Shown here one piece after another: positions 12,933 through 13,076 of a stretch of DNA of 64,000 nucleotides (position 1 is the first letter of the stretch; each line of letters opens with the position of its first letter). The stretch covers positions 139,710-203,709 of the forward strand of contig CALOCX010000003.1 of the NCBI GenBank assembly GCA_942491995.1, read 5' to 3'. The DNA is from an uncultured Gammaproteobacteria bacterium (GTDB lineage: Bacteria; Pseudomonadota; Gammaproteobacteria; UBA9214). Under the pieces are notes generated by a model, which was not told the DNA's origin, did not search any database, and worked only from the letters and a program-made list of their open reading frames with translations. The translations under genes were made by a program, and so were the position numbers.

Positions 12933-13076
12933 GCGCTTACTTAATGAAAATCTCGCCACGGAAGCACACGGAAAAACACGCAATAAAAATGTCTTACAAG
13001 AAATATTTCCGTGTCCTTCCGTGTGCTTCCGTGGCTAATCAGATGTTTTTATAGCCGACACCACTTAAGTAAGCAC
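12933..13076. repeat. Nested palindromic (MITE-like) element in the ccmE-ccmF spacer
   Basis: Outer inverted repeat GCTTACTTAA 12935-12944 / TTAAGTAAGC 13065-13074. Inner perfect 19-bp inverted repeat GCCACGGAAGCACACGGAA 12955-12973 / TTCCGTGTGCTTCCGTGGC 13017-13035, with AT-rich 43-nt centre. Accounts for the 259-bp gap in an otherwise tightly coupled operon. Confidence 0.7.

Follow-up and report, generated by a model that had tools for sequence, protein, structure and literature searches.

A probable miniature inverted-repeat transposable element with IS4-type ends and a hairpin cargo between ccmE and ccmF of an uncultured gammaproteobacterium

The ccmE-ccmF gap and the element inside it

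We analysed a 64,000-nt stretch of DNA (hereafter the window; contig CALOCX010000003.1 of assembly GCA_942491995.1) from an uncultured gammaproteobacterium of the lineage UBA9214, focusing on a nested palindrome that separates two genes of its ccm operon. Pfam matches identify nine genes in this operon, ccmA, B, C, D, E, F, G (DsbE), H and I, and a preliminary description of the sequence was right that from ccmA to ccmI all junctions but one overlap or abut. The exception lies between ccmE (12429-12890, plus strand; Pfam PF03100 CcmE, E = 4.8e-35), which itself has an ATGA overlap with ccmD, and ccmF (13149-15152, plus strand; PF16327 and PF01578). These two genes flank the palindrome upstream and downstream. 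The gap between them is real, but it measures 258 nt (ccmE ends at 12890 and ccmF starts at 13149) rather than the 259 nt first given. A CcmF search places the host near Thiohalobacterales and Thiogranum among uncultured gammaproteobacteria, the top matches being 92% and T. longum 75% identical. In our view, the palindrome is very probably a 154-bp non-autonomous MITE (short for miniature inverted-repeat transposable element) with IS4-type ends and a hairpin as cargo, which inserted recently into the operon spacer.

The element occupies positions 12928-13081. The location initially proposed (12933-13076) is correct, whereas the extent is not, as the element is 5 nt longer on each side. It is bounded by 18-bp terminal inverted repeats, outside of which lie 11-bp direct repeats: the left target-site duplication GGTGCATGCAT (12917-12927) and the right one GGTGCGTGCAT (13082-13092) are identical in 10 of 11 positions and together read GGTGCAYGCAT. 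The left terminal inverted repeat, GAATGGCGCTTACTTAAT (12928-12945, plus strand), agrees with the family consensus GAATGGCGCTTACTTAAG in 17 of 18 positions and fits the signature of the IS4 subgroup, -AATR--------WTW-. The right one (GCAGGGTGCTTACTTAAG on the minus strand, 13064-13081) is degraded, matching the consensus in 15 of 18 positions and having lost the outermost AAT of the signature. The outer inverted repeats reported before, GCTTACTTAA (12935-12944) and TTAAGTAAGC (13065-13074), are present and grow to 13 nt (GGCGCTTACTTAA / TTAAGTAAGCACC at 12932-12944 / 13065-13077).

Between the ends, a short spacer with an A-run, GAAAATCTC (12946-12954, plus strand), delimited with the help of the family alignment and predicted to pair in RNA with the U-run at 13046-13050, leads into the cargo hairpin. 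Repeat analysis resolves each arm of this hairpin into three 10-bp tandem units (TTCCGTGTNC): GCCACGGAA, GCACACGGAA and AAACACGCAA in the left arm (12955-12983, plus strand) and TTCCGTGTCC, TTCCGTGTGC and TTCCGTGGC in the right arm (13007-13035, plus strand). The loop between the arms (12984-13006) is AT-rich by composition and differs among copies in both length and sequence. The right arm is followed by a long subterminal spacer, TAATCAGATGTTTTTATAGCCGACACCA (13036-13063, plus strand), with a T5 run at 13046-13050. According to the alignment, this spacer and the '..GGTGTCATCAATAAAAACACCCAATTG' spacer of other copies are homologous, and therefore the window copy is inverted relative to the family alignment of 22 copies described below. 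The inner inverted repeat, GCCACGGAAGCACACGGAA (12955-12973) / TTCCGTGTGCTTCCGTGGC (13017-13035), is indeed perfect over 19 nt, as had been stated, and reaches 90% complementarity over 29 nt; the AT-rich centre is likewise confirmed by a guanine-plus-cytosine fraction of 0.43 as compared to ~0.6 in the flanks.

Both the repeats and the fold of the element are far beyond chance. With up to three mismatches allowed, the 19-mer GCCACGGAAGCACACGGAA has three matches in the window, all within the element, where 0.03 would be expected. The RNA fold of the spacer reaches -93.5 kcal/mol (z = -6.7), none of 200 shuffled sequences being as stable, and the inner module by itself reaches -48.2 kcal/mol (z = -9.05). 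The window holds one copy of the element, and there is no transposase remnant between its ends. In Rfam, no model matches the element above its gathering score; at a permissive E-value the only matches are eukaryotic miRNA-hairpin models far below their gathering scores, which we discarded as generic hairpin similarity. Small open reading frames (ORFs) in the element (e.g. MNGAYLMKISPRKHTEKH...) were also rejected as genes, their starts being unconserved: ATG, TTG, TTA and ATA all precede GCC among the copies. On inspection, IS66-like outward 'GTAAGCG' ends, an integron attC site, a sigma-54 promoter and a DNA-uptake sequence were dismissed because conserved positions or orientation did not fit.

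Elsewhere in the window, there is a REP-like family, (T)GCAGGAGCGCCGTCCCCGGCGCGATT, which forms inverted doublets at 17473-17562, 29617-29681 and 51399-51545 with arms of 24-36 nt that are 89-100% complementary; the first doublet is located just 3' of ccmI. In agreement with the view that the element is unrelated to the REP family, these doublets have no sequence in common with it.

A dispersed family, its insertion sites and its IS4-type ends

A profile search with the whole window element retrieved many full-length relatives, 22 of which could be aligned end to end. Their architecture is fixed: the terminal repeat GAATGGCGCTTACTTAAG is followed, in this order, by ~30 nt of spacer, the decamer-array hairpin, ~8 nt of spacer and the inverse terminal repeat. 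This composite with the same ends, spacer and cargo hairpin exists in at least 22 full-length copies, at least nine of them in assembly CAVQCA01. The flanks reveal a duplication of fixed length. In a comparison over 72 elements with these ends, left and right flanks are 70% identical at 11 bp, as opposed to 26%, 37%, 33% and 28% at 9, 10, 12 and 13 bp, respectively. The 11-bp duplication is perfect in 23 of these elements and retains at least 10 of 11 identical positions in 30, whereas the control, in which left flanks were paired with the right flanks of other elements, gave such matches in 0.26 cases on average and in two at most. Perfect duplications are found, for example, in L080 (GGGTTAGATCC), L064 (GGGTGTCAGTG) and L052 (ACCCCCTAATC), and 10 of 11 positions agree in several others. 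The duplicated sites conform to the nearly palindromic consensus GGGTCWGRCCC, A being abundant in the 5' arm and T in the 3' arm. Further copies with target-site duplications, which the preliminary description had suggested looking for, thus exist in other genomes.

The same IS4-type ends enclose many other interiors (49 short pairs were examined). Some of these are minimal elements of 79-92 bp, and REP-like GTAGG...CCTAC palindromes are often found. Other hairpins within such ends (L205 2164-2296, L209 917-1049, L222 2758-2896 and L189 449-611) have arms composed of tandem repeats, (TCGTCC)n/(GAGGAC)n and (TAATCN)n/(GATTAN)n, and hairpins with tandem-repeat arms are a recurrent cargo type of these ends. 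The family also includes a 79-bp derivative (L140 1793-1871) in which the decamer hairpin is deleted and GCCACG is left, and a 312-bp nested composite (L156 184-495) of a MITE with REP cargo and a MITE with decamer cargo. Metagenome contigs often end within the element or at the terminal repeat (L003, L004, L006 and many of L128-L247). A blastn search of a plasmid collection gave no match to the element. Since full-text searches found no paper containing the terminal-repeat or the hairpin-arm sequence, a MITE superfamily with IS4-subgroup ends, an 11-bp duplication and a preference for GGGTCWGRCCC is apparently undescribed.

Comparison of the ccmE-ccmF junction in relatives places the insertion within a single species. 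Four same-species contigs with at least 98.8% nucleotide identity (L002, L003, L005 and L006) have this MITE at the junction, while the same-species contig L004 stops 4 nt into the left terminal repeat; in other words, four of the six CcmE-encoding contigs of the window species carry the insertion and one more ends at its border. In L001, also of this species (98.9% identical from ccmB to ccmE), divergence sets in 3 nt past the ccmE stop, and the 68-nt tail (1827-1894) has no match among the sequences compared here. L001 could be a chimeric assembly or come from a strain in which something else has inserted. In six CcmF clusters with 84-92% CcmF identity (L121-L125 and L248-L250), the insertion is absent from the junction. 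Some of these relatives have a tight junction: ccmE and ccmF are separated by 1 nt between stop and ATG in L121 (92% CcmF identity), overlap by ATGA in L124 and L125 (84%) and are called 2 nt apart, nearly abutting, in L250 (88%). Others have unrelated repeats at the same place. L122 (33-120; 91%) carries a REP-like GTAG...CTAC hairpin, GTAGCCCGGATG...CATCCGGGCTAC. Different palindromes with an inverted repeat of the CCCTTCTCC...GGAGAAGG type occupy a 223-nt gap in L123 (2278-2500; 87%) and a 189-nt gap in L248 (179-367; 91%), and yet another palindrome is found in the 152-nt gap of L249 (1018-1169; 89%). The alternative outcome considered at the outset, a structure conserved at this junction across distant relatives and lacking other genomic copies, is contradicted by these data.

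The ccmF-proximal part of the window spacer is common to the relatives that have a spacer. They share with the window a small hairpin, CCYTYTCYCTSAGRGAGAGGG, and the ribosome-binding site next to ccmF, and a spacer therefore existed before the insertion. The new DNA in the gap amounts to ~165 nt (the 154-bp element plus one copy of the 11-bp duplication), so that ~93 nt of spacer pre-existed in the window lineage. The ccmE-ccmF spacer is a hot spot that different palindromic repeats have struck repeatedly. In the window, RNA folding puts the small hairpin, CCTTTCTCTCAGAGAGAGGG, at 13107-13128 (plus strand), in the pre-existing spacer outside the MITE and directly 5' of the ccmF ribosome-binding site GAGAGGAG (13134-13141, plus strand), which is recognisable from its sequence 7 nt 5' of the ATG. 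Its homologue CCCTCTCCCTGAGGGAGAGGGGG is present in L122, L248 and L249, and the hairpin is kept at this position in every lineage with a spacer. This hairpin may be what is left of some other repeat, or it may have a genuine role in translation.

Where did the ends come from? Published members of the IS4 subgroup are 1400-1650 bp in size, their ends follow the signature -AATR--------WTW---- and their direct repeats measure 10-13 bp (PMC2266710, Table 1). The consensus GAATGGCGCTTACTTAAG matches all of the fixed positions (AAT in 2-4, R in 5 and W-T-W in 14-16), and 11 bp falls within the range of 10-13 bp. Insertion sequence (IS) IS4 of E. coli K-12 has the ends TAATGCCAGTCAGTTAAGC and TAATGCCGATCAGTTAAGG and a 12-bp duplication, ATCTTGGTTCTG; GAATGGCGCTTACTTAAGG is identical to TAATGCCGATCAGTTAAGG in 13 of 19 positions. 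A metagenome scan for AATGGCGCTTACTTAAG yielded at least 120 stretches. Among the matches listed, there are 11 terminal-repeat pairs spaced 1.48-1.95 kb apart, each around an ORF resembling InsG, the transposase of E. coli IS4 (tblastn E 1e-6 to 1e-27). Eight of these full-length ISs measure 1482-1579 bp and three 1.88-1.95 kb. Their duplications are 10 bp long in L244 (perfect, GCTCTACGTT) and L230 (9/10) and ~12 bp long in L143 and L234. Two of the 11 transposases, those of L235 and L219, were examined against NCBIfam and Pfam and for motifs. They score 218 and 220 bits, respectively, with NCBIfam NF033592 'IS4 family transposase' (cutoff 115), match Pfam DDE_Tnp_1 (PF01609) and contain Y-(2)-R-(3)-E-(6)-K, read in them as the motifs YELRWNVEIDLRHLK and YFRRWAVELCFRDIK. 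The signature of the ends, direct repeats of 10-13 bp, a single-ORF DDE/YREK transposase and the typical size are all those of the IS4 subgroup, from which the MITE ends appear to derive. IS231, our first guess, was abandoned as the parent in favour of this subgroup on the basis of published end signatures (PMC2266710). No IS4-like transposase was detected in the window or within 8-kb stretches around other hairpin copies, nor did the stretches around those copies contain long terminal-repeat pairs.

The decamer hairpin as a separate repeat

The exact 19-mer arm of the cargo hairpin is widespread: ~50 assemblies of gamma- and betaproteobacteria contain it, in no fewer than 114 genome stretches, with many stretches per assembly. 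The scan covered one genome per species, and ~4 chance matches are to be expected by our estimate (19 specified bases, 596 Gb, both strands). Most hosts are metagenome-assembled genomes of gammaproteobacteria (Thiohalobacter, Thioalkalivibrio, Ectothiorhodospiraceae, Chromatiaceae, Lysobacteraceae), and the betaproteobacterial ones include Vogesella, Chromobacterium aquaticum, Ottowia and Burkholderiales; viral contigs gave no match to the 19-mer. Among the matches listed, 117 of 138 exact arms have no IS4-type end nearby, and no target-site duplication was found around bare decamer hairpins. The inner hairpin is thus a separate, widespread repeat family that the MITE carries as cargo.

The consensus over the 138 arms is GCCACGGAAGCACACGGAA-AaACACGGAA and that of the arm with its flanks aaaaa...tatTG-GCCACGGAAGCACACGGAA-AaACACGGAAaaaa. 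An arm may have from two to seven decamer units (seven in L034), and a CACGAAA variant exists. Runs of at least four T within 3-20 nt 3' of the arm accompany 33% of arm ends as compared to 3% of random positions. Throughout the hairpin family, the excess of T falls at +9 to +13 past the arm, and because of the GGTTTTT-like runs that follow arm ends, the hairpin unit looks like an A-tract, a hairpin and a T-tract. As for gene context, the numbers of hairpins in convergent, tandem and divergent positions are 16, 27 and 10, the corresponding baseline being 78, 210 and 76, although these counts come from a crude ORF-based caller that put 34 of 136 copies 'inside' ORFs.

Some hairpins are embedded in larger structures. 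In assembly CAYWKV01, decamer hairpins are bracketed by inverted GTGAGGA / TCCTCAC heptamer arrays (L016 950-1190, L041 1400-1640, L043 930-1170 and L053 3110-3360), and in other assemblies the bracketing arrays are (CGTGAAA)n or (GTGAGAC)n, giving rise to long palindromes made entirely of tandem repeats. In Vogesella, Thiohalobacter thiocyanaticus and one Abditibacteriaceae assembly, an arm end precedes an apparent start codon of the opposite strand by only 9-20 nt (L046 ~5913, L049 ~7220, L098 ~1094 and L026 ~3142). The ribosome-binding site there lies in the A/T-rich flank of the hairpin, and therefore an effect on the 5' untranslated region is possible.

It is conceivable that the decamer hairpin, AAAAACC-N6-GCCACGGAA(GCACACGGAA)n ... 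(TTCCGTGTGC)nTTCCGTGGC-N6-GGTTTTT, might be an undescribed functional module of many gamma- and betaproteobacteria, with IS4-subgroup ends serving as 'cassette carriers' that spread host palindromes; we put this forward tentatively and consider it rather doubtful. The hairpin could be a bidirectional terminator-like or a protein-binding element, and its 10-bp phasing would place all decamers on one face of the DNA helix. If ends of this kind do carry host palindromes, MIC231-type modularity would reach a second IS4 subgroup and also include cargo that is non-coding. A decamer hairpin that is base-perfect across distant proteobacteria is, together with the cargo modularity of the IS4-type ends, the unexplained residue of this analysis.

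Origin of the insertion and comparison with known systems

The MITE-like insertion that had been suspected from the letters alone holds up on several grounds. The element is short and non-coding, it has terminal inverted repeats and a duplication of fixed length, its copies are dispersed, its ends are those of an autonomous IS, and the insertion is polymorphic, being absent from relatives. Judging from the family, a transposase would recognise the 18-bp repeats GAATGGCGCTTACTTAAG and move the element in cut-and-paste fashion with a staggered 11-bp cut, preferably at GGGTCWGRCCC-like sites. At this locus, for which the predicted empty site is CAACGGTGCATGCATAACAAACAACC, the insertion would have duplicated GGTGCAYGCAT in the ~93-nt spacer already present between ccmE and ccmF. 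A foreign cargo, the decamer hairpin, sits between the ends in place of a transposase, one possibility being that it was acquired when two IS copies on either side of a hairpin transposed inside-out, and the element would presumably have been mobilised in trans by a cognate transposase. The insertion is young at the lineage level because only same-species contigs share it, yet the copy is decaying, since its right end carries mutations at the outer tip. Without the outermost AAT, it is probably no longer a transposase substrate, and the window copy is probably immobile now. It is probably co-transcribed with the ccm operon, where it would replace the tight ccmE-ccmF junction of some relatives by a ribosome-binding site of ccmF's own and a very stable RNA hairpin. 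The net effect is most likely near-neutral.

Several points weigh against the insertion of a MITE of IS4 origin. With a right end matching in 15 of 18 positions and a duplication in 10 of 11, the window copy by itself makes a weaker case than the family does. The MITE and the sampled ISs share the 18-bp ends (plus 1-2 nt) but no subterminal sequence, and therefore the MITE is not a simple internal-deletion derivative. All eleven autonomous ISs come from unrelated metagenome contigs, none of them tied to the window genome. Furthermore, transposition itself is deduced from sequence, and near-neutrality is our own judgement. The U5 run after the stem could cause partial termination.

The last point leads to the possibility that the insertion now serves, by exaptation, as an attenuator or RNA-stability element inside the operon (a partial terminator, a barrier to 3' exonucleases or an RNase site), which would lower expression of ccmFGHI relative to ccmABCDE. 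The hairpin is very stable (z = -9), the predicted pairing of the A-run 12947-12950 with the U-run 13046-13050 gives the geometry of a bidirectional terminator, T is enriched after the arms throughout the family, and the insertion is found in most of the CcmE-encoding contigs of the species. On the sense strand of ccm, UAAUCAGAUGUUUUUAU lies 3' of the hairpin, and the U5 run in it makes attenuation possible as a side effect. However, although a stem is present, the run starts 10 nt past the perfect stem (1 nt if a weak A·U extension forms), the site is in the middle of an operon and a consensus scan calls no terminator on the plus strand. Moreover, ccmF-I are required for cytochrome c maturation and there is no promoter-like site 3' of the hairpin, so strong termination would be harmful; no promoter is predicted within the element or anywhere in the ccmE-ccmF gap. 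Gene 3' ends are not clearly favoured by the hairpin family, as far as a crude gene caller can tell, and relatives manage without the element. Such exaptation is therefore unlikely in our estimation, and an attenuator or processing structure, the other option raised at first, is not where the element comes from. Still less can be said for a native, conserved cis-regulatory RNA of the ccm operon that involves no insertion. Its strong structure and intra-operon position would suit this explanation, but related junctions at 84-92% CcmF identity abut, overlap or hold unrelated repeats instead, the same sequence is present at no fewer than 114 unrelated loci, terminal repeats and a target-site duplication surround it, and no Rfam family matches. 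The comparative data already refute this explanation, leaving it next to no probability.

Two other origins were considered. The element might be of the REP/REPIN type and moved by a RAYT (Y1/HUH) transposase rather than being a MITE of a DDE transposon. Its two inverted arms superficially resemble a REPIN doublet, and REP-like doublets do exist elsewhere in this genome. However, the arms are tandem decamers that are not individually palindromic and lack a 5' GTAG, and the composite has 18-bp IS4-type terminal repeats and an 11-bp duplication; HUH elements (IS200/IS605, RAYT) are not known to make such target-site duplications. This origin is thus refuted for the composite and very improbable overall. 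The inner hairpin is a different matter, because most of its arms (117 of 138) have neither IS4 ends nor a visible duplication around them and its own spreading could be REPIN-like. Alternatively, a full-length IS4-like IS might have inserted here and lost its interior in situ without ever moving as a MITE, in which case the terminal repeats and duplication would look identical. Yet over 20 further loci in other genomes hold the same composite, a separate duplication accompanying each, it has at least nine copies in assembly CAVQCA01 alone, and its interior is unrelated to the sampled ISs, which have no decamer hairpin. We regard in-situ loss as extremely improbable. The insertion of a ready-made MITE remains our preferred explanation, and the element appears to be ordinary selfish DNA rather than a conserved regulator. 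For annotation this means that the odd 258-nt gap in an otherwise tight ccm operon would be selfish DNA in a repeat-attracting spacer, with no regulator to annotate. Such repeats also break short-read metagenome assemblies, three of the six same-species contigs ending inside the element.

Among the systems described earlier, IS4 of E. coli and its subgroup are the closest with regard to the ends (PMC2266710). The window MITE shares with them the end signature and a duplication in the range of 10-13 bp (11 bp here and 12 bp in K-12), and its full-length relatives of 1.48-1.58 kb encode, like IS4, a single-ORF DDE/YREK transposase. Marked target specificity has been noted for some members of the subgroup (PMC2266710) and is seen in the MITE family too. 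Unlike E. coli IS4, the window element is only 154 bp long, has no transposase and has an unrelated interior; the related transposases are ~24-30% identical to InsG, and the hosts are uncultured gammaproteobacteria of the sulfur cycle. 

Small palindromic repeats offer further parallels. Chunjie, a MITE from Geobacter uraniireducens (Chen et al. 2008), is described in a review as lying inside an operon and having dozens of mostly intergenic copies of variable size (PMC10969869). Going by the review's description, it resembles the window MITE in conserved terminal repeats, direct repeats and insertion into an operon (PMC10969869), whereas its sequence is unrelated. Correia elements (NEMIS) of Neisseria and SPRITE of Streptococcus pneumoniae are hairpin repeats that are co-transcribed with adjacent genes and can serve as RNase targets, IHF sites or terminator-like modules (PMC10969869). 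The window MITE is likewise a small hairpin-forming repeat, but with other ends and another duplication. The duplication of the Correia element is TA. REP, BIME and REPIN sequences are also palindromic, found in intergenic regions as well as within operons, and can stabilise upstream mRNA; the window element differs from them in having hairpin arms of tandem 10-bp units and, in addition, terminal repeats and an 11-bp duplication.

Another precedent is MIC231, the mobile insertion cassettes of IS231 in the Bacillus cereus group, which have IS4-family ends and exchangeable foreign cargo and for which mobilisation in trans by the cognate IS has been demonstrated (PMC6199540). In both cases, one set of IS4-family ends carries many different cargoes in place of a transposase. 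The passengers of MIC231 are protein-coding and 0.7-3 kb long, whereas those of the window family are non-coding, mostly palindromic and 40-400 bp long, and the subgroups differ as well (IS231 for MIC231 and IS4 for the window family). Cargo modularity had not yet been observed in subgroups of the IS4 family other than IS231 (PMC2266710). With exchangeable and mostly palindromic interiors, the family represented in the ccmE-ccmF gap has its only IS4-family precedent in the coding cargo of IS231/MIC231.

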